The position numbers and the translations under genes were made by a program. A DNA stretch of 33,085 nucleotides from a virus (taxonomy: Duplodnaviria; Caudoviricetes): positions 1-33,085 of IMG/VR virus record IMGVR_UViG_3300016476_000512; one strand, given 5' to 3'. Of the stretch, positions 6,901 through 32,788 are shown piece by piece. The notes under the pieces were generated by a model. The model was not told where the DNA came from and did not search any database. It saw only the letters and a program-made list of their open reading frames with translations. Every line of letters starts with the position of its first letter. Positions within the stretch are counted from its first letter, which is position 1.

Positions 6901-7258
6901 GCCTGCAGACTTACGTGCAAAATTTGAATCTTTGGCTAGTGAGTACAAACAGCTAACTGGTAAAAAGCTTATGTTAAGTAGCTCGTATCGCAGCGTTGAG
7001 GAGCAGACAGCACTATATCAGCGTTGGGTGTCTCTTGGAGGAAATATTCCAGGGAATCCTGTAGTGCAAGACGAAACAGGATCTAAGATCTTTATGCCAA
7101 GTAAACCTAGTGCATCGAGCCCTCACGCAAGACGACTTGCATTTGACTTGAGTAAAACAGACATTGCATTCTTAGAAAGCAAAGGGTTACTAGCAAAGTA
7201 TAACTTCTTATTCCCGTTCCCTATCAATGACCCTGTTCACATACAAACTAGAGGTTAA
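3956..7258 (+). CDS. gp5: Central spike protein (gp5/VgrG-like OB fold + beta-helix) fused to GH19 lysozyme, a second lysozyme-like domain and an M15 Zn peptidase
   Basis: N-terminal DPTRAGRLQVWIP...PDIGNQVICTF (gp5 OB fold) and GHTFVMDD...LRTAGGHQILMND spike repeats. GH19 motifs AQCAHESGNF..ENLNYS...DGWKFIGRG...VNGGDNGLADR. Lysozyme-like IGYAESDLNY...GRY. M15 motifs SSYRSVEEQ...SPH...AFD...DPVH. Confidence 0.85.
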   Translation: MTTDRRLNRKLPERVRREDTPGIRIDSGPFIGIIKNNIDPTRAGRLQVWIPDLGGDEDNPQNWRTVNYASPFYGTTYQPNTSKNNKYDEVQHSYGMWAVIPDIGNQVICTFIAGDPNRGYWFACINPNLSHHMVPALGSTKTLDTNNIDPALKSKFDTNSSVWPAAEFNENIPDNIKPGWINNPKPPHEFQANVLINQGLDRDGVRGAIGSSAQRESPSNVFGISTPGRPLNDPMDNPQFEAKLKAGTLTEADYAVRGRKGGHTFVMDDGEQMGANQLVRLRTAGGHQILMNDSDRIVYIANSDGSVWLEFTGGGHINLYSAAGINVRTEGEFNVHADKDININSGGSIKLKSENVIANQTKDFYIKSSTSTSIHTGKFGALVDGSLTLQSASGGWNSSGKLVLKGSKILLNTETPPEVPKVGDLKTYKQADTGWDSTKGLWVSKSDVYETIATISPAHEPWPRTAGRGVAAVKSQFSDAPKVEKQSSVCEAPGGVTAIKPGILPTGTTGEELIVSALQQAGKTDPITVAAILAQCAHESGNFTKLVENLNYSAEGLNRTFRKYFPTLESAAPYARNPEKIANKVYGGRMGNGPETSGDGWKFIGRGYIGLTGRELYTKASSKIGVDLVNNPEQASDPKIAARLVVYFFFENDGRFNTVNWDDVDRISYLVNGGDNGLADRREKYKAYKAKYASGNVVTTGTGGVVVDGSGRPITTGSGALDPGPESAKGKAVVKPAPGEKMGAADAPRPAPIASTESKIPGLIATQVKALMIQIGYAESDLNYSAQDVTLGRIGRYKINGNLLRDYGYIKSDYLSKYGTAAIFRDDSWTGKDGITGPSDFTSGKGIQDSLMETVINDYYKALVRNRGIQIQDDVCTVAGMISVAYFLRDSERGFLSGNPPDQAKFWREQANTITNKQKETCDTAYNQGRYAIDVLSIQTTGPTTTLSDAVVTLGPSGSGINPMDVIQFTSGSGDYDHYMQMPADLRAKFESLASEYKQLTGKKLMLSSSYRSVEEQTALYQRWVSLGGNIPGNPVVQDETGSKIFMPSKPSASSPHARRLAFDLSKTDIAFLESKGLLAKYNFLFPFPINDPVHIQTRG

Positions 7259-17000: not shown

Positions 17001-20000
17001 CCTTTTTGAGGAATGGGCAGTTCGAGTAGGAGAATACGGAGCAACAGAAAGCAACAAGTATGTTGAGATTATTCTCGACGACAGTACTGTAACTTCTAAT
17101 CCTGTTCCACTGGAATTCCTAGAAACAGCAGCAGTTAAAACACTTGGATTTAGCTCGTATCATCCATCGGACATTTATCAAAGCAGTCTAGATTTTAAAC
17201 CTGATGTGTTTGATATATACGAAACATCTGCATCTAAGAAAACTCTGCCAGTTGCAGGATATGCGTCTCTGGATCAAGTAAGTACAACTATCTTTGATCT
17301 AGCAAACTATACTAGCTTGCAGTCTATTATTGACCAAATTGGTATTGGGTACACTATCTGGACAGCCAAAGGTTTCACCGGAAGCTGGGATGTATACCGC
17401 GTTAGCGAAACCAACTGCCAAGTTACAAGCTTGTCTTATAGCATTGACAACGTTGCACAATTTACAACAAACAGACCACACGGTTTATCGGTAGGCGATG
17501 TTGTTGCAGTTAAAGGGTTCGACAGCAGATTCGATGGTTTTTACCAAATCTTTGCAACACCGACTACTAACAGTTTCTCAGTTGGCTTACGTCAGAACTA
17601 CGCACTACTAAGCCAGCTTATCAACGTTGCCGGAAGAGGTTTATTGTTTAAATTAACAAGCTCTCGTATTCAGAAGCCGAGCGATATTGATACCATTAGA
17701 CCTAAGTACGGTTGGGCAGCCGGGGATAAAGTCTGGGTTGACAATCTAGACAGTGAGGGTAACTGGGGAGTATATAACAAGGCCGAACCTTGGGGCTTTG
17801 TTTCTCAGATTAACTTAAACAGCAGTGAATACTCAGGTAACGACCAGTTTGGTAGCAGTGTACAACTTTCAAAAGATGCATCTATCTTGTATGCCGGCGC
17901 ACCTTACAGTGCAGGAACAGGTCGTGCAGCAGTATTCCTAAAAACTTCTACCGGTGATTGGGTAGAGAACAGCAACTTTGTTATCAACAGTTACGGCGTT
18001 GTCGGATTTGGGCAAGCTATTCAGGTAAGCTCTAAAACTTTTGTTGTCGCTGCCCCTCTTAGCTTTAACAGCCGCGGATACGTATTTGTATTCACAATTT
18101 CTAACAACGGTATTCAGATTAATCAGGTCCTGACAGATCCAACTGGAACATCCAATGGCCTATTTGGTGAGACAATCAGTCTCAGCGACGATGGCGAATG
18201 GTTATACGTTGGCGCACCTGGTACAGGTAAGGTGTTTGCATACGGAAGAACCTCTCGTGCAAGCACATCTCAGCAGATTACTGCCGATGGTATTGCAAAC
18301 GACTTCACATTGTCTAATCAAACTATTACAGATCCTGCTAGCTTGCTAGTTACCAGTGACGTGCCATACATTCCTAATGTGCAGTACACTATTGTAAACG
18401 TTGGAGGTACTTATAAGCTACGATTCATTGACGACGCCGGAACTCCTACACCGCCGTCTCCTGGATCTATCCTTGTAACTTTCCACAGCACTTATGATCT
18501 AAAAGACACATGGACTGGAGTAACTGGTTTTGGTAAGAGTGTAAAGACTAATGCAGCAGGAAACCAAGTTGTAGTTGGATCTAACAAGGAAACTGTAAAT
18601 GGTACTATGCTAGCAGGAAAAACCTACGTATACGACAGAAGTATTGAAGGTTTTATTGCCAGCGGCACACAAAATACTTTTATCCCTACTAGACCTCTAC
18701 AGTCAAAGTATCGCGTTACTTTAAACGGTCAGGAAATGACACAAGGCGTTAACTATTATCTAGTTAGCGGCAACATTCAGTTTGTGACAACCCCGGCGGC
18801 CGGATCTATTGTTAATATCGAAACCAACTACTTTGCGCTAATTCAAAGTTTTGGCAGCAAGGTTAGCATGTATGCACAAGAACTTGGTACCTCGGCAGAT
18901 ATTTGCCCGAATACTTGTTCTCTATATGTATCCGCACCTAATTACTCTACCGCAGATTATCAATTTGGTGCAGTGTACCGATTTGTAAATCAAGGTAAGC
19001 TGTACGGAACAATAACAGGCAACACTAAAAATCCAACAGTAACTCCGGGTCACAGCATTAGAATTAATAATGTTGTAATTCAGTTTACGGATTCTACATT
19101 AGTTCACGTGATTAATAAAATCAACGGCTCGGGTATCCCTGGGGTCACTGCAACTAGCGTCGACGGATATCTAAAAATTCAGTCTAGTTCTGTAATTCAG
19201 TTTAACAAATTGGATGTATTACCATCGGTTGGAACTGCAATATCAGATTTGGGACTTGATATTTTTGTACAAGCGCAAAAGATAACACATCCTAACTCTA
19301 CACCAGAGAACGAATTCTTTGGCTCAACTGTTAAAATCAGCGACACCGCAGATCAATTAGTTGTTGGCAGCAGAGGGGGCAACAGTTACTTAAACACTAC
19401 CTTTGACGAGAATACCTCTACTTTCGATATCGGAAGTACAAACATGGTAGATAAAGTACAAGGTTCTGGTGCGGTTTACGTATATGATTTAATGGAGAAT
19501 CCGTACGAAACAGCAGAAAATCCGAGCATGTTTGCGTATGTCCAACAGCTAACACCAGGAGCAGAAAGCAGCCAGCTTGACAGCGGATTTAACCTTGGCG
19601 CCAGCATTGACATAAAGAACGGTTATGTTGTTATTGGCGCAAATTACCATTCACAGTTTAACAACGGTGGTTGTGTTTTTGCATTCGATAATGCAGATGG
19701 CACAGGCGGCTGGGACTTAATTCGATATAAAGAGCCTCGCGTTGACCCTGAGAGCATTGACCGCATCTATGTCTACAACACTAAATCTAAGTCGATACTA
19801 GCAAGGCTTGATTGCTATGACCCAGTTAAAGGTAAAATCCTGGGTGTAGCCGAAGCAGACCTAGACCATGTTTCCGAAGAAGACCCAGCAGTGTACAACG
19901 ATGGCAATCCTGCTGATGGTAACGGAACCGGTACTGACCTAAGCTACGATGCACTATACCACTGGTCAGATCTACAAGAAGGACGCACTTGGTGGGATAC

Positions 20001-23000
20001 TAGCCAAGTCCGATACATTGACTACGAACAAGGCGACTTAATCTACCGCAGTAGATACTGGGGCGATACATTCCCTGGCAGCAAAATTGCGGTATATGAG
20101 TGGGTTAAGAGTTTATACCTACCAAGTCAATACGTTGCAAATGGCGGCAATGGTGTGCCTAAGGATCAAAACGATATTTACTATGTAAGTCAGATTATCG
20201 TTGATCCAAGTACAGGGCTAGTAACTACCTACTATTACTACTGGGTAGAGAAAAAGACTACTGTAGATACTGTTAAAACTAATAGAACAAACAGCGTCTA
20301 TACTATCAGCCAGATCATCGAAAATCCCAAGGATCAAGGTATTCCTTATGCTGCACCAATGGCTAGAAATAGTCTGAACCTATACAACATAACCAACTAC
20401 TTAACAGGTAGAGACGTTGCGTTGCACATTGACTTTAGCCCATTTGGTGATACAAACATTATCCACAGTGAGTACCAATTAGTAAGAGAAGGCGATGATA
20501 CTCTAGCTATACCTGACCGTATCATTAATAAGATACAGGACAGTCTAGCTGGTATCGACTCGGCTGGATTGGCAGTACCCGACCCTTCCTTACCACCTCC
20601 TACTAAACTTGGCATCGGTATTCGTCCTCGTCAGACTGTATTTGATAACAGGGAAACTGCGGTCGAGAACTTTGTTAAGTTTATTAACAGAGTATTTGAA
20701 GAGCACCCAATTGCTTATACTTGCGATTTAACTAGATTAAACGCTGGTGAGGAAATACCAGTAGCAGGTTCCGGGGCCTGGGATATAAGTGTAGACACAA
20801 CCAACGAGCTAGACTACATCGACCGAAGCTTACTGGCCAATGGAGAGAAAGTATTAGTTAAAACAGACACTAATAATGATAACCTGTGGGCTATCTACAA
20901 ATGGAACGTTGCAGAATCTTTTTGGATCCTAGAAAAGATCCAAGGTTTTTATACTGGGATCTATTGGAGCCTTGTTGACTGGTACAAGAGCGACTTCGAT
21001 TTTACAGTTAAACCTACATATACAATTGATGCGTACTATCAAATTCAGACTCTCTCCCTTAGAGCAGGGGACATTATTAAGTTGAATGACAACGGCAAGG
21101 GCGAGTTTGTATTCTATCGTGTAGCAGGTGATCTAACATTAGAAATTGTAGGTATTCAAAACGGTACTATTCGAGTCAACGACAGCGTCTACGACCTTGC
21201 TGCGGGTAACATGGCATTCGACAACGATAACTTTGATACAATCCGATTTGACCAAAACCCAATTGTCGAAATTCGAAATATTTTCTCTGCGGTATACAAC
21301 GACATTTTTATTAAAGATATTAAAATTGAGTTCAACAGATTGTTCTTTAGCTTAATTAACTACATCTTTAGTGAACAAAAATCAACAGACTGGATTTTTA
21401 AAACCAGTTTCATTGACGTCGAACACCGTATTAGAGATCTTGCTCAGTATCCGAGCTATGTTAAGGATAACCAGACTTTCTACGAAGATTATATCAACGA
21501 AGTAAAACCTTATCGTAGTCAAATTAGAGAATATGTGCCTCGTTACGACGGCTTAGACTACTTGAATGCAGGTGCAACTGACTTTGACATTCCGTCTAGC
21601 TATAACACCGTAAACGGAACATTTAGAAGCCCGGACGGCAATCTTCCAAACGATGCAACCGATCTTGCTACTCTACCTCAATATAATGACTGGTACAATA
21701 ACCACGAATACAAAGTTGTTGAGTTAGTTATTGACAATCCGGGAACCGGTTTTACGCTAACACCTAACATCACCATCAGTGGCGGCGGCGGTGCTGGAGC
21801 AACAGGTATTGTTCGAATTAATTCGAACACAGGTGGAATCAGTTCTGCTTCTATTGTTACACCGGGTGCTGGCTTTACGTCCACGCCGACTGTAACTATC
21901 AACGGTAACGGAACTGGAGCAGTAATAAGTGCCAAGCTCAAGAATGTGTTTTACAAAGAAGACCCAACTAAGAGCTACAACACTGTTAGAACATTTAACA
22001 CATCGTTGATTTTCGATCGTGTTTCTTATACTGCTAACGTAGTTGATTGGCAACCTAATGTTGCATTTACTGCATCTATCACTGTTGGTACCGGAACAGG
22101 AAATATCTGGCTAGCGGCAGGCAATCTTGTGCAGTATAGTAACAAGTTATACTACCCGTTTGCAGCTAATGTAACAAACGAAACAACTTTTGACGCAACC
22201 TTGTATCAAGAAGTTTCTCCTGCTAACGTTTTAGTAACTGCAAGCGAGCGTGTAATGGGTTATTACAACCCAACAGATGGTATGCCAGGACGAAACATTT
22301 CGTCAGTTATCGGTAACATCGACTATCCTGGTGTAATTGTTGACGGCATTGACTTTGCTAATACCAAAGTCGGTGATATCGATACAACAATTAGCAGTAC
22401 CTTTATTGACACTAGCCTAGGTACCAAGCCAGAAGACATTAACCTAGATGGCGGTGCTTTCGTTGATACCTTTAGCAGCCATGCGCCAGAGGAACTTCTC
22501 CCCGGTACAGTGTTTGATACCCTAGAAATGCAAGTCTTTACTAAAATTTCTAGCAACACCTCGGTACTTGGACACCGCGTTTTCAAGAACATGAGAGGAA
22601 ACGTATCGTACACAAGGATTGCAGACAGCGCATCTACTAGACTATCAAGCCAGTTGTTACTAACTGACAGCAATATCAATGTTGTAAACGCCAGCGTTTT
22701 ACCTATGCCTAACCGTAGCTTAAACATCCCTGGTGTGGTGTTCATTAACGGAGAAAAAGTTATCTACTGGAATGTAGATTACACCAACAACGTGCTATAC
22801 GAAATTGTGCGTGGTGTTGACGGAACTGGTGCTGCAAATGTACATACTGCAAACAGCAGAGTAGTTGACAGCAGTATTCAGCAATCTGTGCCGGGCTATG
22901 CTACAACTAAGACTCAAGAGTTTGTTGGTAATAACGTACAAAGAACATTTACTTGCTCTAACTTAAACACTATCCATCCTGATAGCGTAAGCGTCCAGGT

Positions 23001-23217
23001 AAACAATGTACCAGTTGACTTTGTATTAGTAACTTACCCTAACATAACTGTTAAGTTGTTGACTGCACCAGTTACTGGAGCAAACGTAACAGTGGCGGCA
23101 GCAGTAGAAAGACCTTGGTTGAATATGACCGGAAACGTAGCAGATGGTACAGGGTTCGAAGGATCTACTACTGCACAAGTTACTTTCTTAAAAGCAAATG
23201 TGAGTTATAGCCCATGA
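11059..23217 (+). CDS. Giant (4052 aa) baseplate wedge/virion structural protein, gp7-like, with an FG-GAP-like beta-propeller and carbohydrate-binding-like modules
   Basis: Uninterrupted 12.2-kb ORF directly after gp6. The N-terminus FLPEIF...KFL resembles gp7/gpI-type wedge starts. It carries seven FG/LG-xS/T...V-G-A-P repeats, WKPGVDYRKGTLVSY (CBM5/12-like) and two PG(T/A)GFT..P...I.G.G.GA repeats. Confidence 0.7.
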   Translation: MAAIKTINFLPEIFRTDTNKKFLNATLDQLVSEPNLKRVNGYIGRKFAPTYKSSDSYIDEIDSQRQNYQLEPGAVVYNPETDNVDFYGSYIDLVNKVKYHGGITDNHSRLFGGEFYSFDGKFDFDKLINFSQYYWLPKGPESVTVTANSVPMTYTWDVEVDVTSGAWRFSDRNKVDLNPNITLAYGGVYTFNVKAGQFWIQTEATTTGFNPLHPGIDLREVLGVENNGATSGQVTFRVPQPSGQDRFTKMIDPVNGVEVDFATSLTYKDLQGNTVSNLNDVLKGIDGVKSDPNGKKIIFVGSAIDDIFWTVESNVDPQTLTPIDPLLVVPKEDRTKTWIVQVDQDGVINLVAYDPIDKNKAVYVKSGVLNASRYFYVDYTGFYKPVPLITAPLTTLAYQNSQSGSGFGTISLVNPSNAVINPDLEIVGKKYYTSPNGVTFTNGLKVKFDSTVFPNSYYAYKFDDYVDWKGFVISRGGYITGDQNSGYAYMDDARIGEWSAVNGLIYKEWYVEGVGTGIKLVNSNTLIAPELENLNTHDYITINRSSLDGNAWSRSNRWFHIDVIKATDTYNGSTTPIDQNSRAKRAIIEFDPNLKLFQYGKVALDPINQLDYVITDAYSQVVTRITDNANSMTITNNGNSVTLNNGDRVIFASDANPIVRRKIYKFKIVDISENPFANLYIGLIEEDGLVEVQEGNDLLVLVTGGQNANKQFYFDGVNWLLCQQKTKVNQPPLFDAFDENGVSYGDTNTYVNSSFKGTTIFSYKVGTGTADSVLGFPLSYRTFNNIGDIQFENTWDTQQFTYLVSPNTLTKNINSGYLHITIDLQNYQEANLWEKVVEQSKQYQIISHTADGVNNLFEIDILPNPSTTTEGYKALPNINVFVNNKFVDVNSFGLAQVGIRYAVLVNPVILKAGDTVDILIYSDSVSKMGYYQIPQNLENNSLNQNFDSLTLGQIRNHLIKISQNSQDVTGAVPGNSNIRDLDIKCQGGVILKHSSPVVYSNLFLVDNNLNFVESLKLAQKEYTRVKNKIVELSTTIEVNVTNIAETLDNILYVINGVKNKNFPWYHSDMLPWGQNKKVLPAYTVLDPRIREYELSSIFNPTALSNKAVLIYLTRSTGTQTTTELLKHEIDYVFNSNSPSFRILDSFNLNYDDILTVVEYFDTDGNFIPETPTKLGLYPKFVPEIYTDETYASGPVTVIRGHDGSITPAYGDFRDQILLEFERRIYNNIKVKFAHEDLVQHIPGAFRVTDYSLAEWNQILSSSFLTWIGNNRLDYSTNNYFQSNNPWTWNYKNFKDTLEPGKVVSDRNNLQGTWRAVYQYFFDTDKPHTHPWEMLGFRHKPDYWDSRYGPAPYTGGNLILWNDLMEGYIHDGDRKGYDLRYARRRVVDPETSTIIRLGLVDIIPVDDAGNLRPPSEILVSNFNSSKANASYAIGDQGPVETAWRRSSDYPYALTLATALMKPAEFFGSYINIDRLIYNTKFGQWVTKDTNQHIIPTAIEVNGYTNASGTIFRTAGYINWISDYLKNLGIGDPQSLIKTYLKNLNTQLSYKVGGFTDKNYVKVLAEQGSPNSTNDSIVIPDTNYRIELYKSVPVNRITYSAVIVEKTQNGYTVSGYNLGSPYFTIVPSLANNNSYSVKVGRLTGVIYKDYQRVRVRVPYGFEFATSQEVVDFLVGYQRQLQSQGFVFNDYDQDLKAKKDWILSAKEFLTWAQQGWNPGNVIILSPVDQKLSVSSADSVVDEIVNLPSGSKLLDPNFAVIKSNAMTIMRQDNRFSVEAIKGQTIAFADLNLVRFEHVLIFDNVTSFNDVIYSPSTGNRQYRLKLVGSKTAEWTGALNPPGFIYNSSKVDEWKPGVDYRKGTLVSYKANYFVALENVTANELFVTTSWKQINKSSIKTGILPNFATNAAKSENFYDLDNQPTDETLNFYSNGITGFRERQFLTDLNLDVETQSKFYQGYIKQKGTKNSVLALAQAQIANISSEVNLFEEWAVRVGEYGATESNKYVEIILDDSTVTSNPVPLEFLETAAVKTLGFSSYHPSDIYQSSLDFKPDVFDIYETSASKKTLPVAGYASLDQVSTTIFDLANYTSLQSIIDQIGIGYTIWTAKGFTGSWDVYRVSETNCQVTSLSYSIDNVAQFTTNRPHGLSVGDVVAVKGFDSRFDGFYQIFATPTTNSFSVGLRQNYALLSQLINVAGRGLLFKLTSSRIQKPSDIDTIRPKYGWAAGDKVWVDNLDSEGNWGVYNKAEPWGFVSQINLNSSEYSGNDQFGSSVQLSKDASILYAGAPYSAGTGRAAVFLKTSTGDWVENSNFVINSYGVVGFGQAIQVSSKTFVVAAPLSFNSRGYVFVFTISNNGIQINQVLTDPTGTSNGLFGETISLSDDGEWLYVGAPGTGKVFAYGRTSRASTSQQITADGIANDFTLSNQTITDPASLLVTSDVPYIPNVQYTIVNVGGTYKLRFIDDAGTPTPPSPGSILVTFHSTYDLKDTWTGVTGFGKSVKTNAAGNQVVVGSNKETVNGTMLAGKTYVYDRSIEGFIASGTQNTFIPTRPLQSKYRVTLNGQEMTQGVNYYLVSGNIQFVTTPAAGSIVNIETNYFALIQSFGSKVSMYAQELGTSADICPNTCSLYVSAPNYSTADYQFGAVYRFVNQGKLYGTITGNTKNPTVTPGHSIRINNVVIQFTDSTLVHVINKINGSGIPGVTATSVDGYLKIQSSSVIQFNKLDVLPSVGTAISDLGLDIFVQAQKITHPNSTPENEFFGSTVKISDTADQLVVGSRGGNSYLNTTFDENTSTFDIGSTNMVDKVQGSGAVYVYDLMENPYETAENPSMFAYVQQLTPGAESSQLDSGFNLGASIDIKNGYVVIGANYHSQFNNGGCVFAFDNADGTGGWDLIRYKEPRVDPESIDRIYVYNTKSKSILARLDCYDPVKGKILGVAEADLDHVSEEDPAVYNDGNPADGNGTGTDLSYDALYHWSDLQEGRTWWDTSQVRYIDYEQGDLIYRSRYWGDTFPGSKIAVYEWVKSLYLPSQYVANGGNGVPKDQNDIYYVSQIIVDPSTGLVTTYYYYWVEKKTTVDTVKTNRTNSVYTISQIIENPKDQGIPYAAPMARNSLNLYNITNYLTGRDVALHIDFSPFGDTNIIHSEYQLVREGDDTLAIPDRIINKIQDSLAGIDSAGLAVPDPSLPPPTKLGIGIRPRQTVFDNRETAVENFVKFINRVFEEHPIAYTCDLTRLNAGEEIPVAGSGAWDISVDTTNELDYIDRSLLANGEKVLVKTDTNNDNLWAIYKWNVAESFWILEKIQGFYTGIYWSLVDWYKSDFDFTVKPTYTIDAYYQIQTLSLRAGDIIKLNDNGKGEFVFYRVAGDLTLEIVGIQNGTIRVNDSVYDLAAGNMAFDNDNFDTIRFDQNPIVEIRNIFSAVYNDIFIKDIKIEFNRLFFSLINYIFSEQKSTDWIFKTSFIDVEHRIRDLAQYPSYVKDNQTFYEDYINEVKPYRSQIREYVPRYDGLDYLNAGATDFDIPSSYNTVNGTFRSPDGNLPNDATDLATLPQYNDWYNNHEYKVVELVIDNPGTGFTLTPNITISGGGGAGATGIVRINSNTGGISSASIVTPGAGFTSTPTVTINGNGTGAVISAKLKNVFYKEDPTKSYNTVRTFNTSLIFDRVSYTANVVDWQPNVAFTASITVGTGTGNIWLAAGNLVQYSNKLYYPFAANVTNETTFDATLYQEVSPANVLVTASERVMGYYNPTDGMPGRNISSVIGNIDYPGVIVDGIDFANTKVGDIDTTISSTFIDTSLGTKPEDINLDGGAFVDTFSSHAPEELLPGTVFDTLEMQVFTKISSNTSVLGHRVFKNMRGNVSYTRIADSASTRLSSQLLLTDSNINVVNASVLPMPNRSLNIPGVVFINGEKVIYWNVDYTNNVLYEIVRGVDGTGAANVHTANSRVVDSSIQQSVPGYATTKTQEFVGNNVQRTFTCSNLNTIHPDSVSVQVNNVPVDFVLVTYPNITVKLLTAPVTGANVTVAAAVERPWLNMTGNVADGTGFEGSTTAQVTFLKANVSYSP

Positions 23218-23885: not shown

Positions 23886-25355
23886 ATGGCATACCTAGTT
23901 AATAAAACCGACGGTACCTTACTAACAACAATTCTTGATGGCCAGACTGACAGTACCTCGTCGAGTATTGTATTAATTGGTAAGCAAGTTACCAACTACG
24001 GTGAGATTCAAAACGAAGATTTTATTCACATACTGGAAAATTTCAGCAATAGTATTGATCCTGCTAATCCATTAGAAGGACAACTGTGGTGGAATAAATC
24101 TACTAACGTGATGAACGTCTTTGACGGAAGTCAATGGCGCCCAGTAACAGGTATGACCAGCGGCAACACTACTCCGACTAATAGTTATGTTGGAGACCAA
24201 TGGTGGGATACTACAAACGATCAGTATAAGATTTGGAATGGGACACAATGGACTGTTGTTGGGCCTGCATTTAGTAAGCTAGACGGGGTATCTGGGGCAA
24301 TAGTCGAAACAGTATACGACACACTAGCAAACAAACACATAATTGTTTCGCTATATCATAACGGAAATAGGACTTCCATTTTCAGTAGAGATGCCGAGTT
24401 TACTCCAAACGTAGCACTACCTGGGTTTACCTCTATTAAAACTGGTGCATCTTTTAGTTCTGAAGTGGACGCAATTAAATTTCACGGCACTGCAACAAAT
24501 GCAGATACCCTTGGTAATTTAACTCCTGGACAATTTCTAAGAAGCGATGTTGATGATACTACTACAGGTTCATTAACCGTTAAAGGACAATTCAATGTAG
24601 GTGACAATAACGAACTTTCTGCGTTTAGTAACGGGCTAGGACAAGTTGTTCTACAGAACAATTCTGTAAATGACGACATTATTGTCAAAGTTAACATTGC
24701 AAATATTCTAACAACTGCAATCACAGTCAACGGAACTACTGGTTTAGTGACTGTTCGCAGCGCACCCACAGACAGCTTAGGTATTGCAACTAAAGGGTAC
24801 ACAGACAGCTTAGTTAACGTTCTAAGAACTGACACTGGTAATTACCTTGCAGCTAACGTACTAACTCTTAATAACAAAATTGACGGGGTACAGGCTAATG
24901 TTACAGGCGCTAACGTTGCTATTGCAAACTTAAACACTGTTAAAGCTCCATTAAACAGTCCTGCATTAACTGGAGTTCCTACAACTCCTACCGCCCCTGC
25001 AGGAACAGCAAATACACAGGTTGCTAGTACAGCGTTTGTTGCCAGTGCAATTTCTGCCTTTGATACATCTAAGATATATTCTAGCGCAAGCACATTTGTT
25101 AAAACCTACACATCTAATGTACAAACAGTAATAAACAATACGGTTGTGTCGACCGCTAAATCAACAGGGATAGAAACTATTACACAGCCAGCTGGCGACA
25201 ACAGTACAAAAGTTTCGACAACTAATTATGTTGATAGAGCAATTAAAAACTTTGTAATAAACGGGTCTAACTACCAACCAACATGTTACGTCTCTAATCT
25301 TCCTCCGGACAACGGTGTTGGATCCGACGGTGACTTCTGGTTCCAATATAGATAA
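23886..25355 (+). CDS. Tail fibre / baseplate pin protein A (paralog of 28276..29820)
   Basis: N-terminal LIGK..NYGE..NE.F...LENF...P..GQLWW and GDQWWD repeats. It has ATKGYTD, a coiled-coil segment, the fibre motif KAPLNSPALTGVPTTPTAPAGTANTQVASTAFV and a C-terminal GSDGDFWFQY. Confidence 0.75.
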   Translation: MAYLVNKTDGTLLTTILDGQTDSTSSSIVLIGKQVTNYGEIQNEDFIHILENFSNSIDPANPLEGQLWWNKSTNVMNVFDGSQWRPVTGMTSGNTTPTNSYVGDQWWDTTNDQYKIWNGTQWTVVGPAFSKLDGVSGAIVETVYDTLANKHIIVSLYHNGNRTSIFSRDAEFTPNVALPGFTSIKTGASFSSEVDAIKFHGTATNADTLGNLTPGQFLRSDVDDTTTGSLTVKGQFNVGDNNELSAFSNGLGQVVLQNNSVNDDIIVKVNIANILTTAITVNGTTGLVTVRSAPTDSLGIATKGYTDSLVNVLRTDTGNYLAANVLTLNNKIDGVQANVTGANVAIANLNTVKAPLNSPALTGVPTTPTAPAGTANTQVASTAFVASAISAFDTSKIYSSASTFVKTYTSNVQTVINNTVVSTAKSTGIETITQPAGDNSTKVSTTNYVDRAIKNFVINGSNYQPTCYVSNLPPDNGVGSDGDFWFQYR

Positions 25356-25363
25356 AAACAAGT

Positions 25364-27574
25364 ATGTCAACACTATACGACGGAACAGTAGCATATACAA
25401 TTGCTTTGCCATATTTTGGTGGTAGATATTATTTTACCTTCCCGCAAGACGGTTTCTTGTATGCGCTTAACTATAAACTATGGGGAGCAGGCGGCGGCGC
25501 TGGCGGTGCCGACAGTCGTCCGGGTGGTAATGGCGCCGGCGGCGGGTTCGTTGAAGGTACAGCATGGTCAAATGCTTTTGCTGGATCAACTGTAGAAGTA
25601 TTCGTCGGAGGCGGCGGCTCCCCTGGTGTCTCGGGTGGTAATGCAACAGGTGGATCAAACGGTAGAAGCGCAACCGGATTCAGTGGCGGCCCAGGCGGAA
25701 ATTCTGGTCCCGGTGGATGGTCCGGATCTGGCGGTGGCGGCGGTGGCGCAACAGTTCTTAGGATTAGCGGACTCAATATTGCTATTGCTGGCGCAGGCGG
25801 CGGCGGCGGTGGTGGTGGCAACCACTCAGATGGTGTAAGTGCAGGAGCAGCATTTAATCATACATATAAGCAAGATTTGCTAGCAACAGACCAAGGCAAG
25901 GGCTGGCACGGACTAAGTCACTATGGAGATGGTGGCGGAGGTGGCGGCGGGGGCGGTGGCGATGCCGGGGGTGGACCCGGAGCAGCAGGCAGCGGCGACA
26001 ATGGAGGGCAAGGCGGAGCCAGTGGTACAAACGGAAACCAAGGCGATTTCCCCCTTACTAGCGGAATATACGGAATCGGTATAATCCCAGGCGGCATCAA
26101 CGTCGCGGGGTATCCGGGCAATCGTGTGGGCATGGGCGGATCATATGGTGCTGGACAGTACTATCCGGGTGCCGGGACCAACGGCGCATGGTCTAGCTTA
26201 TTAAATAACTACGGTGTATGGTCCGGTAACGGAATTTACACGTGGCAGGTTTATTTCCCCAACTCTGGGACTTATAATTTTGAAGGATCAGTAGACAACT
26301 ACGGATCACTGTTGATCGATGATGTAGAAGTTTTAAGTATTCCTACATATTCGGGTGTTTACACTTCGTCTGGGTATGTAAGCGCAGGATGGCATACAGT
26401 AAAAATGAACGCCACCAACACTGGTGGACCAGCTGGAACCTCTGCTAGAATTCTCTACAACGGCTCGGCTATTTGGACTACACGCTCTATAATTGACCCC
26501 AACCTGGGAGGAGCTAGCCCTGCAGGCGGCAACGGATATGCAATTTTAACTTTATACCGAGTGTCTGATTTCTTTGTAAAAGTTGACGGGTCGTTCCGCA
26601 GAGCTTGGCCGAGATTTAAAAATTCTAGTAGTTATAACGTTGTTCCTTCTTCTTATATTAAAGTTAATGGAGTTTGGCGTTCAGTAATTAACGACCTAAC
26701 AGTTAATGTAAGTCAAGATTATACTAACTGGGGAGACAACGGAGTTCCAGAAGCAGTGTATGCACCTGAACCAACATTCACTGGATATTGGGACGGCGGC
26801 TCGGGCGGAGATTCGTCAACTGCGTCGACTTCGTGTGACTCCTCTACATCATGTTCAGCTGATGGCGGCGGCGGCGGTGGTGGTGGCTGCTTCCTTGCAG
26901 GTACACTAGTGCGTATGGCCGACGGTACCGAAAAGCCGATTGAAACAATACAATCGGGGGATGTTATATTGGAAGCACTAACTGGACAACCAGCTAAGGT
27001 AATCGGGGTAAAAACTCGAGAACACGATGTTAACAAATGGGTATTCGCCCTTGACAAGAAAGTTGATCCTTATATTACCGAAGAACATCCTTTCTATAAC
27101 GAAAACAACGAATTGTGTGCTATAAGCGAGTTAGCCAGCGAGCTAGCTCCGTGGCTAGGTCCAATTAAAATAGTTGAAGTACAAAACAAAACTAAGATAA
27201 AAGAAGCAGTTACAGTTTACAATCTCATGCTTGAAACAGGGGAAAGCCATTGGGCAAATGGTGTTAGGGTCAGTAACATTGTTAAGACTGGTGGAGCTTA
27301 TGCACTGGTTTACAAGGGATTCTTGGATAAATCTGTATACGAAAACCACGTTTATAACACAGAAAATAAATCAGTTAGCCCAGAACAGCAAACATTGATT
27401 TTTAATTACACATTGAAACTAACTAACTATATATTACACAACGACAACGTTAGAAGTCGGGCCCTCGGGCATGTTCTGGCCTGGGCAATAAAGAATAGAG
27501 AAGCAATATACCCTTATCTTGATCGTTGGTTTAAGAGTCGTGTACGTCGTTGGCTTCTTGGAAAAAACATATGA
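25364..27574 (+). CDS. Glycine-rich fibre-tip adhesin-like protein with a PA14-like insert, a C-terminal Hint (intein-like) domain and a helical tail
   Basis: LWGAGGGAGG...VFVGGGG...GGGGGGAT...IAGAGGGGGGGG is a polyglycine-II-type glycine-rich domain. GTYNFEGSVDNYGSLLID...AGWHTVKM is PA14-like. KV(D/N)G repeats follow. The Hint domain spans aa 509-638 (CFLAGTLVRMADG...TEEHPF...VYNL...HWANGVRVSN). Confidence 0.8.
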   Translation: MSTLYDGTVAYTIALPYFGGRYYFTFPQDGFLYALNYKLWGAGGGAGGADSRPGGNGAGGGFVEGTAWSNAFAGSTVEVFVGGGGSPGVSGGNATGGSNGRSATGFSGGPGGNSGPGGWSGSGGGGGGATVLRISGLNIAIAGAGGGGGGGGNHSDGVSAGAAFNHTYKQDLLATDQGKGWHGLSHYGDGGGGGGGGGGDAGGGPGAAGSGDNGGQGGASGTNGNQGDFPLTSGIYGIGIIPGGINVAGYPGNRVGMGGSYGAGQYYPGAGTNGAWSSLLNNYGVWSGNGIYTWQVYFPNSGTYNFEGSVDNYGSLLIDDVEVLSIPTYSGVYTSSGYVSAGWHTVKMNATNTGGPAGTSARILYNGSAIWTTRSIIDPNLGGASPAGGNGYAILTLYRVSDFFVKVDGSFRRAWPRFKNSSSYNVVPSSYIKVNGVWRSVINDLTVNVSQDYTNWGDNGVPEAVYAPEPTFTGYWDGGSGGDSSTASTSCDSSTSCSADGGGGGGGGCFLAGTLVRMADGTEKPIETIQSGDVILEALTGQPAKVIGVKTREHDVNKWVFALDKKVDPYITEEHPFYNENNELCAISELASELAPWLGPIKIVEVQNKTKIKEAVTVYNLMLETGESHWANGVRVSNIVKTGGAYALVYKGFLDKSVYENHVYNTENKSVSPEQQTLIFNYTLKLTNYILHNDNVRSRALGHVLAWAIKNREAIYPYLDRWFKSRVRRWLLGKNI
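26888..27277 (+). other. Hint domain (130 aa, BIL/Hedgehog-like; no endonuclease)
   Basis: Cys1 codon TGC at 26888, block B TEEH, block F VYNLMLETGESHWANG and block G VRVSN ending at 27277. The +1 residue is Ile. Confidence 0.9.
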
Positions 27575-28035
27575 AAATTCGATTTACAGCAAGTTTATTA
27601 CCACTCAGTCCGCTTATAAGACTTTGGACATGGAGCCGAGTAAGCCACTGCGAATTCGAATTCAGTGATGGCATACAAATTGTGGCAGCGATGGAAGCCG
27701 GGCGGGTTATTGCAACCAGGAATAGGAAATATACCTGGGAATATAACTACAAATTAGATATCAGCGACAAGCAAGAAAGGGTGCTTAGAGATTGGTGCGA
27801 AAGTCAGTTAGGCAAGCCTTACGATTACACCGCATTAGCACCACTTAATGTTTTAATTCCCAGGCAAAAAAAGCAGTGGAAAGACGACAGTCGTTGGATG
27901 TGCAGCGAGTTATGTGCATACGGACTTGAGCTAGTTGGATTTGAGTTTTTTGGTGATAACTTTAAAAAAGTTAAACCGTCTGACTTGTTTAATGCAGTGC
28001 AACAGTCCAGTAAAGCAAAACTAATAAGGGAATAA
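27571..28035 (+). CDS. Permuted NlpC/P60 (YiiX/YebB-like) papain-fold enzyme
   Basis: SHCE (His, codon 27646), LGKPYDY and WMCSEL (Cys, codon 27901) show the His-before-Cys permuted order. The start is probably ATG 27571, which makes an ATGA overlap with the upstream stop, rather than the track's 27550. Confidence 0.85.
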   Translation: MKIRFTASLLPLSPLIRLWTWSRVSHCEFEFSDGIQIVAAMEAGRVIATRNRKYTWEYNYKLDISDKQERVLRDWCESQLGKPYDYTALAPLNVLIPRQKKQWKDDSRWMCSELCAYGLELVGFEFFGDNFKKVKPSDLFNAVQQSSKAKLIRE

Positions 28036-28037
28036 CA

Positions 28038-28232
28038 ATGGAATTCAAAGACACTGACATTTTTCTTGAAAATGTATTGAGATTAACAGAAGAAGAAAAA
28101 ATCAAACTTTTAGAGATACTTGTTGACAACGGGGAACTGTTTTCTAAAATTATTCCTGGTAATAGGTTGATAAACTATGTTAGAAGTACAGGAAAGTTGC
28201 CACACGATCTTTTGTATAGCAAAACACAATAA
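28038..28232 (+). CDS. Small hypothetical protein (64 aa)
   Basis: It fills the gap 2 nt after the NlpC/P60 stop, with an AAGGG RBS-like sequence upstream. No motif recognised. Confidence 0.6.
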   Translation: MEFKDTDIFLENVLRLTEEEKIKLLEILVDNGELFSKIIPGNRLINYVRSTGKLPHDLLYSKTQ

Positions 28233-28275: not shown

Positions 28276-29820
28276 ATGGCGTATACTTTATCATTGTCGA
28301 ACGGAAGTGCCCTGCTACCAAATGGTTTAGCAGACGGTACCATCGATACCACGGCCACTAGTTTAAGCCTAATAGGTAAGAATTATCCCGGGTACGGTAC
28401 TTTTTTAAACGAGAATTTTGTTAAACTGCTGGAAAATTTTTCCAACAGCACAGAACCAAATTCTGCGCTTCCTGGACAAATTTGGTATGATAACGCAAAC
28501 AAAGTTCTAAAGCTAAACGTAGCTGCCGCGGCAGGAAACGATGCACAGTGGAAGATTTTGTCAACAATTACAAGTTTCCGCAGCAGACCAGAAACCGCAG
28601 TTGGAGCACCAAACCCTGTAATTGGGGATTTCTGGTGGGATACTGCAAATAATCAGTTAAAAGTCTATAGCAGTTTACCTACCCAGGGCGACAACGGGTG
28701 GATTACAATTGGTCCAGCAAGCAATACAACCACCGGACAGTCAGGTGCCCAGCCGGACACAATCAGCGATGGAACAGCTTCTCACGTTGTAGTTAAGTTC
28801 TTCATTAGCGGTGACTTAATTGCAATCCTTAGTAAAGACGCTGAATTTGTTCCTAGTACCACAATCAGCGGCTTTAGTAGCATTAAACCTGGATTCAACT
28901 TAAACTCTGCTTATACAAATCAGCTGAGGTATTACGGATTCTCAAACGTAGCAGTCAACTTATTATACGGTTCTACTATTGTTAGTGCAAACAATTTTGC
29001 CAGAACAGACGTGGTAACTACTAGCACAGTGCCGTTAGTAACCAGCAACGTGGGCGGTATTAGATTAGGCCCAACAAGTGATTTTGTTGTTAACGTTAAC
29101 GCAGTAACCACATCGATTGGTGTGTACAACAACGATAACAACTACAATACTGTTTTTTACGTTAAGAGTGCAGGTGTAACTAGAGACGTATTTACTGCTA
29201 ATGCACTAATTGCTGAATTACAAGTTAGAAATGACCCAACAACCGGCCTTGGCGTAGCAACCAAACAGTACGTTGATGCAGCCAACACAGCCATTTCTAC
29301 TGCTTATTTAAAGAGAGACGGTTCGAACTCGATTACCGGAAGTATTGTACCTTCTGCTAACGTTGTATATAATCTAGGTTCAACTACCGCGTGGTTCAAC
29401 AATATCTTTGGGCGCTCGTATCAAGCCGCGTATGCCGACTTGGCAGAGCGTTTTGAAGCAGATCAGCCGTACGACCAAGGAACCGTTGTTGAATTAGGCG
29501 GGGAAAAAGAAATCACCGCCGTAGTTGACGAACTCAGTGAATCTGTGTTTGGCGTCATAAGTACAGGTGCAGCATATTTAATGAACGCCAGGGCAGGAAG
29601 TGATACCACTCACCCAGCGGTTGCTGTAAACGGTCGTGTTCCGGTAAATGTAATTGGACAGGTACGCAAAGGTGATAGATTAGTTAGCGCAGGCAATGGT
29701 TACGCAAGAGCTGCGACAAAACAAGAACTAACGGCTTTCAATGTAATAGGAAGATCGTTAGAAAACAAAACAACAGATGGCAAAGGCGTAATTCAAGCCA
29801 TTGTTAAAATAAATAGTTAA
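28276..29820 (+). CDS. Tail fibre / baseplate pin protein B with a C-terminal peptidase-G2-like intramolecular chaperone
   Basis: The N-terminus is paralogous to 23886. It has ATKQYVD and YNLGSTTAWFNNIF. The C-terminal YADLAERFEAD...GTVV...GVIST...VAVNGRVPV...KGDRLVSA...IGRSL matches the DxAE auto-cleaving chaperone pattern. Confidence 0.8.
   Translation: MAYTLSLSNGSALLPNGLADGTIDTTATSLSLIGKNYPGYGTFLNENFVKLLENFSNSTEPNSALPGQIWYDNANKVLKLNVAAAAGNDAQWKILSTITSFRSRPETAVGAPNPVIGDFWWDTANNQLKVYSSLPTQGDNGWITIGPASNTTTGQSGAQPDTISDGTASHVVVKFFISGDLIAILSKDAEFVPSTTISGFSSIKPGFNLNSAYTNQLRYYGFSNVAVNLLYGSTIVSANNFARTDVVTTSTVPLVTSNVGGIRLGPTSDFVVNVNAVTTSIGVYNNDNNYNTVFYVKSAGVTRDVFTANALIAELQVRNDPTTGLGVATKQYVDAANTAISTAYLKRDGSNSITGSIVPSANVVYNLGSTTAWFNNIFGRSYQAAYADLAERFEADQPYDQGTVVELGGEKEITAVVDELSESVFGVISTGAAYLMNARAGSDTTHPAVAVNGRVPVNVIGQVRKGDRLVSAGNGYARAATKQELTAFNVIGRSLENKTTDGKGVIQAIVKINS
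29809..29815 (+). promoter_or_regulatory. Late promoter-like box ATAAATA upstream of 29835
   Basis: ATAAATA lies in the last codons of fibre B, followed by an AGGA RBS and ATG 29835. Confidence 0.45.
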
Positions 29821-30904: not shown

Positions 30905-31219
30905 ATGAGTGACCTACCTAATATTGTAGAACAAATACGCTTGGCTACAGATTTCAATATTAACAAGCAAATTCTCAGAGAAAAAATTCAAACCGATTTG
31001 CACTTTGCCCACAATGGCGGGATGTTTAAAATTACACCAGAATTGTTGGCGTTTGTACAGAGCTGGCCCATTGATAGGATTTTCTTGGAGGATGTTTATC
31101 AAAACCCTATTGAGGTTGATAAACAGGTATTTTTAGTAACAGCACAGCAACACTATCATCGTGTTATGAATGACTGGCATGAGCAGTATGAGCAACTACG
31201 CAAAATCCGTAAAGTCTAA
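30905..31219 (+). CDS. Hypothetical protein (104 aa), first gene of the glycosyltransferase-like cluster
   Basis: The track's start at 30866 falls inside the terminator hairpin, so ATG 30905 (MSDLPNIVEQ...) is more plausible. Confidence 0.7.
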   Translation: MSDLPNIVEQIRLATDFNINKQILREKIQTDLHFAHNGGMFKITPELLAFVQSWPIDRIFLEDVYQNPIEVDKQVFLVTAQQHYHRVMNDWHEQYEQLRKIRKV

Positions 31220-31985
31220 AGGTGTTGTGATCTTTGCGTCTAACACAGCAGAAACCGATTATGTTAGTATTGCAAATCAAAATGCCAGACTAGTAAAACA
31301 TTTTATGGGGTTGCCGACTACGGTGATTACACCTAAGGACAGTGGTAGCAATCGTAGATTTAGTACAGACACAGGAAATTTTGTTGAATGGAAAAATTTT
31401 GGAAGACATGAAGCATTTGAAGCTAGCCCATACGACGAAACAATTTTACTTGACGCCGACTATCTGGTATTTGATAGCAGTCTCAGTGAGTTGTTTAGGT
31501 GCGAGTTCGATTACTTGTTATTTAACAAGAACAGGTATGTAAACATTTCGCAGCAGCCCAGTACAATGGGGCCATATAGTTTGCCGTATGTTTGGGCAAC
31601 CGCGGTATTGTTCCGTAAAACTGAACAAACAAGATTATTATTTGAGTTGGTTGCAAAAGTCCGACGAAATTACGATTACTACCGACTGCTATACAACGTA
31701 CAAGAAGGAAACTTTCGTAATGATTATGCCTTTGCTATTGCAAATCTCATATTAAACGGAAACGCCATTAACCCGCATAAGTTTGTGCCTTGGCCTATAC
31801 ACACATTTACTGGGAAAATTGATTCAATTGAGTATTCAAGTAATATTGTAGTAAAGTCGGATCGAGCATATGTACTACCAAAACAAAACTTACATATTAT
31901 GAGTAAAGCGTGGCTTAACAGCCCGGCACTTGAAAAATTAGTTGATCAATGTCTAGACAATTCTATAACCAACAAGGGTTCTTAA
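31188..31985 (+). CDS. GT-A fold glycosyltransferase-like protein 1
   Basis: KGVVIFA.N...DY, ASPYDETILLDADYL (DxD motif), WATAVLF, FRNDYAFAIA and LHIMSK. The start could be 31170, 31179 or 31188. Confidence 0.65.
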   Translation: MSNYAKSVKSKGVVIFASNTAETDYVSIANQNARLVKHFMGLPTTVITPKDSGSNRRFSTDTGNFVEWKNFGRHEAFEASPYDETILLDADYLVFDSSLSELFRCEFDYLLFNKNRYVNISQQPSTMGPYSLPYVWATAVLFRKTEQTRLLFELVAKVRRNYDYYRLLYNVQEGNFRNDYAFAIANLILNGNAINPHKFVPWPIHTFTGKIDSIEYSSNIVVKSDRAYVLPKQNLHIMSKAWLNSPALEKLVDQCLDNSITNKGS

Positions 31986-32788
31986 CCTTTGCAATTAACA
32001 GTAATACTACCGACTATCTTCGGTTGGCATATCTGCAGGCACTAAATATCAAAGACACTCAAAAAATAAAAAACGTGTCAGTAATAGTTGACCAAGCCAC
32101 ACTAGCGCAGGTTACTGATAAACACCGAAAAGTGTTTGATCACATAATCCCAACAAACAAACTTGATAATCCCTTTGCTAACGAATGGCATGCATGGTGG
32201 TTAACACCGTACAAAGAAACAGTTAAAGTTGAAAGCGACTTACTGTTTACTCGCAGCATAGATCATTGGTGGCATGCATTTAGATTGCACGATGTTTGTA
32301 TGAGTCACGGCTGCAGAAACTATAAACAAGAGTTGAGTACTGTAAGAAAGTATCGACAGGTATTCGATTCGAATTTGTTGCCCGACGTTTATAACGGACT
32401 TATGTATTTTAGGTACAGCGAAGTTAGCAAAAAGTTCTTTAATACAGCAAGGGATATTTTTGATAACTGGCAGCAAGTCCAGCAAGAATTAAAACACTGC
32501 GATGTACCTGCTACGACCGATTTGGTTTATGCAGTTGCAGCTAAAGTTCTTGATGAGCCTTGTTATAATCCCAGTTTAGACTTTATTAACTTTGTTCATA
32601 TGAAGCCCGGAATTCAAGAATGGAGCGATGATAACCCCTGGACTGATTATTGTATACACGGAGTTCGGGAAAATGTCATTCATGTAAACAATATAAATCA
32701 ACTGCATCCATTTCACTATAACGAAAAAAGTTATGCAACAGATGAACTAATTGAGTACTATGAGCAAAGAGTTAGCCGAAGCTTTTAA
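31949..32788 (+). CDS. GT-A fold glycosyltransferase-like protein 2 (paralog of 31188..31985)
   Basis: QGFLTFAIN...DY, LTPYKETVKVESDLL (ExD at the DxD position), VYNGLMYF, TTDLVYAVA and FVHMKP align by eye with the upstream gene. Confidence 0.65.
   Translation: MSRQFYNQQGFLTFAINSNTTDYLRLAYLQALNIKDTQKIKNVSVIVDQATLAQVTDKHRKVFDHIIPTNKLDNPFANEWHAWWLTPYKETVKVESDLLFTRSIDHWWHAFRLHDVCMSHGCRNYKQELSTVRKYRQVFDSNLLPDVYNGLMYFRYSEVSKKFFNTARDIFDNWQQVQQELKHCDVPATTDLVYAVAAKVLDEPCYNPSLDFINFVHMKPGIQEWSDDNPWTDYCIHGVRENVIHVNNINQLHPFHYNEKSYATDELIEYYEQRVSRSF

Follow-up and report, generated by a model that had tools for sequence, protein, structure and literature searches.

A predicted self-cleaving Hint-tail cap and its partner enzyme gene in a phage tail region suggest an undescribed membrane step in virion assembly

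Gene organisation at the locus

The window, that is, the whole 33,085-nucleotide stretch of viral DNA that was analysed, carries in its phage tail region a Gly-rich ORF of 736 aa (25364–27574, + strand), the parts and neighbours of which are listed in Table 1. Its N-terminal part, termed the passenger here, comprises a Gly-rich region, a PA14-like insert (residues ∼270–380) and a C-terminal acidic Gly/Ser linker followed by eight glycines (Gly501–508), directly before Cys509-Phe510; the Cys codon lies at 26888. The order proposed in an earlier note on this DNA, Gly8 and then a Cys-Phe Hint domain with a 98-aa tail, was thus borne out when mapped on the ORF. The relatives of the passenger show Gly_rich_2 and weak PA14 matches, the ESM cluster nearest to the window protein is 15% Gly_rich_2, and a PDB sequence search with this protein gave no meaningful match. 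The passenger is likely a fibre-associated adhesin, and the earlier labels 'adhesin' and 'PA14' are kept on this evidence as provisional ones.

The Hint gene and the enzyme gene behind it are coupled by an ATGA overlap at 27571–27574. An upstream TTG start is possible for the enzyme, but its homologues begin at the ATG, which gives 154 aa. The genes flanking the unit have N-terminal matches to PHROGs 14394 and 15511 in common and both match tail-fibre families, which confirms that the unit lies between paralogous fibre genes.

Table 1. Coordinates of the features in the window
Feature	Position	Strand	Remarks
Upstream tail-fibre gene (context)	23886..25355	+	Tail-fibre PHROGs, best E 4.6e-19
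Passenger, residues 1–508	25364..26887	+	Likely fibre-associated adhesin
Hint domain, residues 509–638	26888..27277	+	130 aa; catalytic residues and predicted fold
98-aa tail, residues 639–736	27278..27574	+	All-helical, basic; predicted membrane-docking or adduct-recognition region
Permuted NlpC/P60 enzyme, YaeF/YiiX-like, 154 aa	27571..28035	+	His26, Glu42, Tyr84, Cys111; PHROG 1128, E 6.5e-19
Small ORF, 64 aa	28038..28232	+	Family found after all three cap types; optional
Downstream fibre paralogue (context)	28276..29820	+	Weak Peptidase_G2 autocleavage match

The Hint domain and its basic tail

The AlphaFold2 model of the Hint domain (mean pLDDT 91.6) was closest in fold to BIL2 (6tmm; Z 14.4, rmsd 2.2, 127 residues aligned), followed by Vint (8r2c; Z 12.0) and Hedgehog (1at0; Z 10.4), and the Pfam Vint and Hint matches to the window protein were both under the cut-off. 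The fold, the Cys at position 1 and the block-B TxxH motif (Thr572-x-x-His575), present in 76/76, place the domain in the Hint superfamily. Cys509, Thr572, His575 and the terminal Asn638 are invariant among the 76 Hint-tail homologues; Lys550 (76/76), a second cysteine, Cys585 (75/76), and His629 (74/76) are also kept.

The window domain ends in Ser637-Asn638, with no penultimate His, and is followed by Ile639. Where a canonical intein has Cys, Ser or Thr at the +1 position, the homologues have Ile (65 of 76) or Met (11), so splicing is not expected; with the splicing residues missing, canonical splicing was ruled out. Nor do the ends resemble the His-Asn terminus described for type A BILs (PMC7765530), being Asn-Asn in 61 and Ser-Asn in 15 of the 76, and a His-Asn end was seen on the Hint of one locus, L047. 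The residue before the Cys is variable (G 50, S 14, E 9, A 2 and T 1; Gly in 18/28 once dereplicated at 80%), and Gly-Gly is found in 50/76. There is therefore no fixed, ubiquitin-like Gly-Gly end, and this counts against the earlier proposal that the C-terminal Gly-Gly of the adhesin could be ligated to another molecule.

The 76 tails contain no transmembrane segment, the highest 19-residue hydropathy being 0.86, and their last 45 residues carry a mean net charge of +8. Structural matches to the tail within the full model reached Z 4.8 at best. We predict that it is a membrane-docking or adduct-recognition region.

The Hint domain, the tail and the enzyme are all under purifying selection (pN 0.12–0.27 against pS 0.62–0.93 in four pairs), and given this selection their arrangement is not due to chance. 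A polymorphic-toxin reading was rejected, as here it is the C-terminal part that is constant and the N-terminal part that varies.

The partner is a YiiX-type enzyme

In a wide search with the enzyme model, the best matches were YiiX (2if6; Z 11.3) and BcPPNE (3kw0; Z 10.3), spanning the entire length, and the third was the T6SS effector TseH (Z 7.9). Canonical NlpC/P60 proteins scored Z 3.4 or less. The model thus has the permuted papain-like fold of the YaeF/YiiX-like class, confirming the permuted NlpC/P60 gene of the earlier note, and it is nearer to YiiX than to DeSI (2wp7; Z 4.3), which speaks against the PPPDE/DeSI isopeptidase option raised there. By sequence it matched 3kw0 with an E of 0.0037, and a Pfam search gave no meaningful match; the name of PHROG 1128, 'enoyl-CoA hydratase', is ruled out by the fold. 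The catalytic roles (His, polar third residue, Tyr and Cys) were assigned from residue order and analogy, and the residues concerned are conserved: H26 in 54/54 of the sequences covering the site, E42 and Y84 each in 61/61 and C111 in 60/61.

To our knowledge, YiiX-type enzymes still have no defined substrate. Published descriptions of related proteins give YiiX and BcPPNE a hydrophobic S1 pocket, which in YiiX holds a fatty acid (PMC3142127), and present two permuted NlpC/P60 proteins as users of phospholipid acyl chains, namely LnsA, which N-acylates lipoproteins from phosphatidylglycerol (PMC13559823), and the phospholipase Tox-Act1 (PMC12994826). By analogy with these, the phage enzyme is likely to be lipid-acting.

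Linkage, partner exchange and other caps

The enzyme was the next gene in 41/41 evaluable related loci, 32 of them with the ATGA, and a reciprocal search from the enzyme found 10/10 paired with a Hint-tail, so the genomic co-occurrence that the earlier note had set as a check was found in both directions. The pairing is kept down to 37% Hint-tail identity. The pair is not tied to the adhesin, as had been supposed: it caps unrelated virion proteins, including DUF4815 proteins and others, and it has stayed whole both in two distinct DUF4815 settings and on a cellular-looking contig. No locus of this Hint-tail family (family A, or cap A) was found in the GTDB genomes searched, and no Hint-tail match among the INPHARED phages. 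A scan seeded with the whole of P0082 returned gp5 domains only and was discarded.

Loci L043 and L038 have enzymes 97% identical and Hint-tails 54% identical, and the Hint-tail and enzyme trees have 8/22 splits in common; partners have thus been swapped within the Hint-tail family. Distances for the two genes correlate (r 0.74). Neither the trees nor this correlation were taken as co-evolution, since adjacent genes share history. Distant relatives of the enzyme (∼30% identity) adjoin tail or tail-fibre genes without an annotated Hint, in RSA1 and MW202455, and a fibre-linked role of the enzyme may therefore predate the Hint. The phage enzyme itself is a distinct subfamily found only behind the Hint-tail of family A.

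The same passengers also occur under two other caps. One, family B, is a sister Hint-tail with 72 loci; the other, with 79 loci, is the 'IIC' cap, which has no Hint and a hydrophobic segment at its C-terminus. The enzyme gene accompanies neither (0/72 and 0/79) and therefore is not needed for capping generally. Family B (hhalign 99.7% to family A) retains the Cys, the TxxH motif and the tail, with a terminal Ser in place of the Asn, which points to N-terminal cleavage as the shared function. By eye the tail might be taken for a homologue of the IIC domain, but hhalign does not bear this out (0.2–6%, best P 0.006). In the DUF4815 setting, a locus with cap A and the enzyme (L046) can be set against two with cap B and no enzyme (L212 and L219), at 57% passenger identity and 57–59% downstream. 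A cap-less orthologue of the window passenger (L084; 50% identity across 316 aa) ends in an acidic Gly-rich tail.

The 64-aa ORF, which the earlier note had placed in the unit, is real. It belongs, as a remote member, to a conserved family, whose profile, made from the other members, matches it at E 3e-5; this family is common to all three caps, and so not particular to this one, and is absent from the DUF4815 loci.

Comparison with known systems

The Hedgehog-like anatomy described earlier is present: a passenger, a Gly linker, a Cys-Phe Hint with TxxH and no splice nucleophile, and amphipathic basic helices without a transmembrane segment, as in the Hog region (1at0; PMC7242414, PMC2362128), the sterol-recognition region (SRR) of which is characterized in PMC7242414 as amphipathic, basic and without a transmembrane segment. 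The phage protein differs in being a phage-encoded cap, in retaining the terminal Asn and in having a dedicated enzyme gene behind it. No match was seen between the tail and the C-terminal region of Hog PF01079: no hit to this model covers it, those of relatives stop by model position 90/213, and the 1at0 alignment reaches just model residue 132, so that the SRR/ARR likeness is one of character only.

BIL2 of Tetrahymena BUBL1 (6tmm, 6y75; PMC8616854) is the best match in sequence (E 1.7e-7) as well as fold, and is reported there as a precedent for Hint-driven lysine ligation. Unlike BIL2 and the type A and B BILs, the phage cap has no ubiquitin-like flanks or His-Asn end and has a fixed helical tail. 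Vint (PF14623, 8r2c) gives the best Pfam match (E 8e-5, under the cut-off), with a structural alignment running to model residue 161, inside the tail, but identity is 18% and the VWA and Vwaint domains described upstream of the Hint in Vint proteins (PMC2362128) are not present in the window protein; no VWA match was found in it or in the scanned passengers. With YaeF/YiiX-like proteins (2if6, 3kw0, LnsA, Tox-Act1, TseH) the enzyme shares a His before the Cys, a Glu third residue and a conserved Tyr, and differs in its exclusive position behind cap A. Removal of a C-terminal module from a tail protein during maturation, as predicted here, is reported for the S74 self-cleaving intramolecular chaperones of tail fibres (PMC7824862), from which the cap differs in fold, expected chemistry (Cys thioester), basic tail and partner enzyme.

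Proposed mechanism and alternatives

The explanation that we favour, tentatively and at somewhat less than even odds, is that the cap docks on a membrane and later removes itself, and that its partner works on a fatty-acyl bond during this step. The Hint and basic helical tail would dock the new virion protein at the host inner membrane, the charge and helix pattern of the tail suggesting binding to anionic membrane. The docked precursor would then be cut by its Hint at Cys509, through a thioester with residue 508 as expected from Hint chemistry. The enzyme, to judge by its fold and linkage, may take acyl chains off a lipid, or transfer them, this lipid being either the one by which the precursor is held or one that captures the thioester for a short time. 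Release would leave the mature protein with a C-terminus that is flexible, acidic and rich in Gly, as in cap-less orthologues. The small ORF probably assists the cap without being obligatory.

Several points count against this explanation: the invariant Asn638 of family A makes C-terminal cleavage possible, caps B and IIC do without the enzyme, partners are exchanged within family A, and distant relatives of the enzyme adjoin tail or tail-fibre genes that have no annotated Hint.

A Hedgehog-like ligation to lipid, whether transient or lasting, has some chance of being correct but is on balance unlikely. In a lipidation cycle, which we rate no higher, residue 508 would be ligated to a host phospholipid head group as a tether for assembly, and the enzyme would strip or edit the lipid for release.

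Alternatively, the enzyme might be a virion-borne phospholipase, loaded via the helical tail and released on a Hint trigger, much as effectors are carried by PAAR or VgrG proteins. The TseH match, the Tox-Act1 precedent (as described in PMC12994826), the distant relatives at tail-module ends and the restriction of the enzyme to tail type A would fit; the passengers would sit at different places in the virion (one fibre-associated, the other DUF4815), the partner swaps speak against a large specific interface and there is no constant immunity-like gene, which together leave this an improbable reading.

Still less probable is a lasting ligation along the lines of the earlier note, in which a lipid, a small molecule or a lysine of another virion protein resolves the thioester and remains attached as an adduct, with the enzyme providing or editing this adduct. 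This draws on the Hog-like anatomy, on the formation of isopeptide links without ATP that PMC8616854 reports for BIL2, and on Cys585, His629, Lys550 and Asn638, which are conserved in family A but not in the family B consensus and track the enzyme gene. The residue before the Cys is variable, however, and of the 53 syntenic slots that are complete, a plain gene occupies 29 and another 14 contain none. Orthologous passengers carry the sister Hint-tail or a Hint-less cap, or are uncapped, and in each case the enzyme is missing, so a lasting adduct cannot be essential.

We are equally doubtful that the cap does no more than cleave itself and that recombination has simply brought along the enzyme gene as an independent member of the tail module. 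Similar enzymes do adjoin tail genes without a Hint, the enzyme is missing from caps B and IIC, and the distance correlation proves little for linked genes; against this, zero separations were seen in the 41 forward and 10 reciprocal loci, even at the lowest Hint-tail identity, and the pair has stayed intact in the DUF4815 and cellular-looking contexts.

It is very unlikely that the passenger is just released and that the substrate of the enzyme is the Hint-tail fragment cut from it, acylated at Cys585 or at the newly N-terminal Cys509 to give a lipoprotein-like product: LnsA (PMC13559823, as there described) offers a precedent, cleavage would expose an N-terminal Cys and Cys585 is well kept, but LnsA requires the membrane partner LnsB, for which the loci have no constant counterpart, Cys509 sits inside the Hint active site and the product has no evident role.

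Implications

We found no description of such a Hint-tail/NlpC phage system in the open-access literature that was searched, and small-molecule adduction by a Hint is, in the account given in PMC7242414, so far confined to Hedgehog proteins. The Hint and the YiiX-type enzyme form a two-gene unit with natural controls in the sister cap, the Hint-less cap and the cap-less orthologue. If ligation is correct, it would represent a new chemistry for joining protein to lipid and a portable means of tagging C-termini. The lipidation cycle, if true, would amount to a switch for conjugation and release that needs no ATP, and that phages move between unrelated structural proteins as one of three or more interchangeable caps. 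Plain release would still mean that removable caps are widespread on phage tail proteins and have gone unannotated. That this cap is always paired with the gene of a likely lipid-acting enzyme suggests an undescribed membrane step in virion assembly.

Architecture and setting of the unit

Re-reading of the sequence bore out every coordinate in the earlier note: the passenger, the varied N-terminal virion protein that carries a cap, ends in Gly501-508, and Cys509-Phe510 opens a Hint domain (residues 509-638) that is followed by a tail (639-736). The ATGA overlap, the 154-aa gene for the YiiX-type permuted NlpC/P60 enzyme and the 64-aa ORF were likewise confirmed. In the Hint-tail model (mean pLDDT 91.6) the Hint fold extends to residue 130 and the tail is all-helical, with BIL2 (Z 14.4), clostridial BIL (12.1), Vint (12.0) and Hedgehog (10.4) as the best fold matches. 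The enzyme model (pLDDT 84.5) matches YiiX (Z 11.3), BcPPNE (10.3), TseH (7.9), PLAAT4 (4.4) and DeSI (4.3).

The unit is flanked on both sides by fibre paralogues, and the window also encodes gp53-, gp5- and gp25-like and wedge baseplate proteins. The window spans an entire IMG/VR virus record (linear, 33,085 bases) whose estimated completeness is 9%; this estimate and the 354-kb relative L084 suggest that the source virus has a jumbo genome.

Features and side observations (L, loci found in the scans; P, protein matches)
Sequence	Position	Feature	Further examples
Window	3956-7258	gp5-like baseplate hub, 1,100 aa, with OB, GH19 and VanY-like peptidase domains in one protein	
Window	11059-23217	Structural protein of 4,052 aa; sole match a weak FG-GAP repeat	
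Window	27571-27574	ATGA overlap of Hint-tail and enzyme genes	
Window	31170-32788	Two conserved genes 3' of the fibre cluster, without a Pfam match; presumably glycosyltransferase-like, from their DxD-like motifs	
L047	5900-6704	Frameshift within Hint, from assembly error or a broken gene; copy ends His-Asn	
L072	2-4500	Cassette in a cellular-looking contig; also on short passengers and, among these examples, on a protein whose start resembles a signal peptide	P0076, P0318, P0323, P0325
L090	12923-13903	2OG-Fe(II) oxygenase-DUF6817 gene behind Pro-rich or cap-less slot proteins	L109, L157
L100	15407-15904	IIC cap at the C-terminus: Ile-Ile-Cys behind a Gly linker, then a helical domain and a hydrophobic end; same passengers; second Cys often close by	L097, L112, L126, L137, L152, L153; L259-L337
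L137	15146-15550	Second partner type, 109-134 aa with Cys-Ile motif, 3' of both IIC and family B caps	L228, L235, L241, L244
L126	14632-14961	As for L137	
		Tandem Hints: a Hint ending His-Asn-Lys lodged in the linker directly before the Hint-tail	P0062, P0064, P0067, P0068, P0071, P0312; L075
		Another short Hint type (~140 aa) on phage-type Gly-rich proteins, bearing a helical end of its own	P0096, P0099, P0101-P0103, P0106-P0108

The window-type cap is strictly paired with the enzyme

Using residues 480-736 as query gave 108 matches, the best 76 of which carry the full Hint-tail (cap A, family A) on varied N-terminal parts. When 1.84 billion representatives were searched with a profile, 26 matches reached E ≤1e-30, with a steep fall after the first 21. 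Across the 76 sequences Cys509, Thr572, His575, Asn620 and Asn638 are invariant, and the residue before Cys509 is G in 50, S in 14, E in 9, A in 2 and T in 1 (18 G, 5 S, 4 E and 1 A among 28 dereplicated sequences). The linker is acidic and rich in Gly; the tail has amphipathic helices and is basic (mean +8 over the last 45 residues), and none of the 76 tails has a transmembrane segment. With Ile or Met at +1 and Asn or Ser at position 637, canonical splicing would not be expected under the rules of intein splicing. Such rules are summarised in passages of PMC8616854. The +1 Lys of the inserted tandem Hints recalls BIL2-type aminolysis.

The earlier note had proposed searching phage genomes for co-occurrence of Gly-rich fibre-Hint genes and YiiX-like genes, and the linkage proved strict. 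Scans seeded with alignments found 43 loci, 11 in IMG/VR and 32 in metagenomes; some contigs occur in both collections, L048 is identical to the window, and two loci stop too early to evaluate. Among the passengers are Gly-rich proteins of several types, DUF4815 proteins of 1,596-1,875 aa and a 517-aa type. In 41/41 evaluable loci the Hint-tail gene is immediately followed by that of the enzyme, with an ATGA overlap in 32. Both genes are complete in 38 pairs (the window among them), of which 25 are distinct at a 90% identity cut-off and 12 when that is lowered to 70%, and their Hint-tails are as little as 37% identical. In the reciprocal scan seeded with the enzyme, 10 of 11 loci lay on the same contigs and the other was cut by a contig edge. 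The Hint-tail and enzyme trees have 8/22 splits in common, against a shuffled mean of 0.17, and enzyme partners have been exchanged inside family A.

The cassette may not be confined to phage. The neighbours of L072 are cellular-looking (Peptidase C13, HlyD-like, Fic), but scanning GTDB genomes for the family A cassette found nothing.

Two other caps lack the enzyme and exchange with cap A

A sister Hint-tail, family B (140 matches, 120 examined), shares the Cys, TxxH and PWL motifs of family A. Its tail is similar, it ends in Ser, and the residue before its Cys is more varied than in family A. No NlpC gene lay near family B in 72 loci (flanks up to 4 kb, at least 600 bases downstream in 65), as judged by a profile that in leave-one-out tests detects 30%-identity relatives at 64-110 bits and that remoter enzymes may escape; the sole match, at 11.8 bits, falls on an unrelated small gene. 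A third, Hint-less cap (IIC) opens with Gly-linker-[KS]-Ile-Ile-Cys and closes with a hydrophobic segment. NCBIfam has no name for it, and none of the 79 loci kept from 201 matches has NlpC within 2.5 kb. It is possibly a further self-processing or membrane-anchoring module. Of the three cap types, only cap A comes with the enzyme.

The caps exchange on orthologous passengers, as in the set of L046 (A with enzyme), L212/L219 (B) and L335-337 (IIC); further sets comprise L045, L190/L196 and L317-321, and L049 and L265/L266. Our survey of the corresponding slot covered the best 80 relatives out of at least 594; it was complete in 53 and incomplete in 27. By motif rules, the complete slots were 29 plain, 14 empty, 7 IIC, 1 Hint only, 1 cap A with enzyme and 1 other Hint-like. 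Enzymes of ~30% identity sit behind tail genes without an annotated Hint in RSA1 and MW202455. The oxygenase-DUF6817 gene adjoining some slot proteins hints that these tail proteins undergo modification.

Members of the small-ORF family stand 3' of family A caps, of IIC caps (29/76 loci) and, at some loci, of family B caps; hhalign links them across cap types at 93.7% and 96.2%, against 0.1% when the first comparison was run with a reversed control. It is missing behind the enzyme in L045, L046, L047, L072, L073 and L078, and in L119-L123 it adjoins an upstream gene without a cap. It is likely to be an optional helper of the cap rather than of the enzyme.

A putative mechanism

The function common to families A and B must depend on Cys1 and TxxH, not on the last residue. 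These shared motifs and differing ends point to a Hint that would cleave at its N-terminal side through a thioester, and the basic A and B tails and hydrophobic IIC end suggest that the cap may tether the protein to a membrane. Enzymes of the YiiX-type class handle acyl chains: passages of PMC3142127 describe an S1 pocket that is hydrophobic, and a bound fatty acid, those of PMC13559823 N-acylation that depends on phospholipid, and those of PMC12994826 phospholipase activity. On these grounds, and with the enzyme confined to cap A, we tentatively favour a self-removing membrane tether in which it acts on an acyl bond during that step.

The enzyme might instead be a phospholipase cargo borne by the virion, which we consider unlikely. 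The earlier note envisaged Hedgehog-like ligation, with the enzyme supplying, editing or removing the adduct. A lasting adduct on the virion protein is a still poorer prospect. It is unlikely to be essential, because cap-less orthologues show the passenger to be capable of working with its acidic Gly-rich end free; one such orthologue of the window's passenger, in L084, has an end of this kind. Transient lipid capture could be accommodated within the tether model, and lipid ligation in either form, transient or lasting, is doubtful but the less remote proposition. Simple hitch-hiking of the enzyme with the cap ranks level with the lasting adduct. That the enzyme acylates the released Hint-tail fragment is very improbable.

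Full-text searches of the open-access literature found no description of a phage Hint-tail paired with a permuted NlpC/P60 enzyme; subscription papers or supplementary tables, notably those of jumbo-phage and Tox-Act1 surveys, could contain one. The matched passages of PMC7824862 treat tail-associated NlpC/P60 proteins as peptidoglycan hydrolases and mention S74 autopeptidases, with no Hint module among them. The two-gene unit is real, mobile and strictly paired, and is made of known folds with a putative chemistry.
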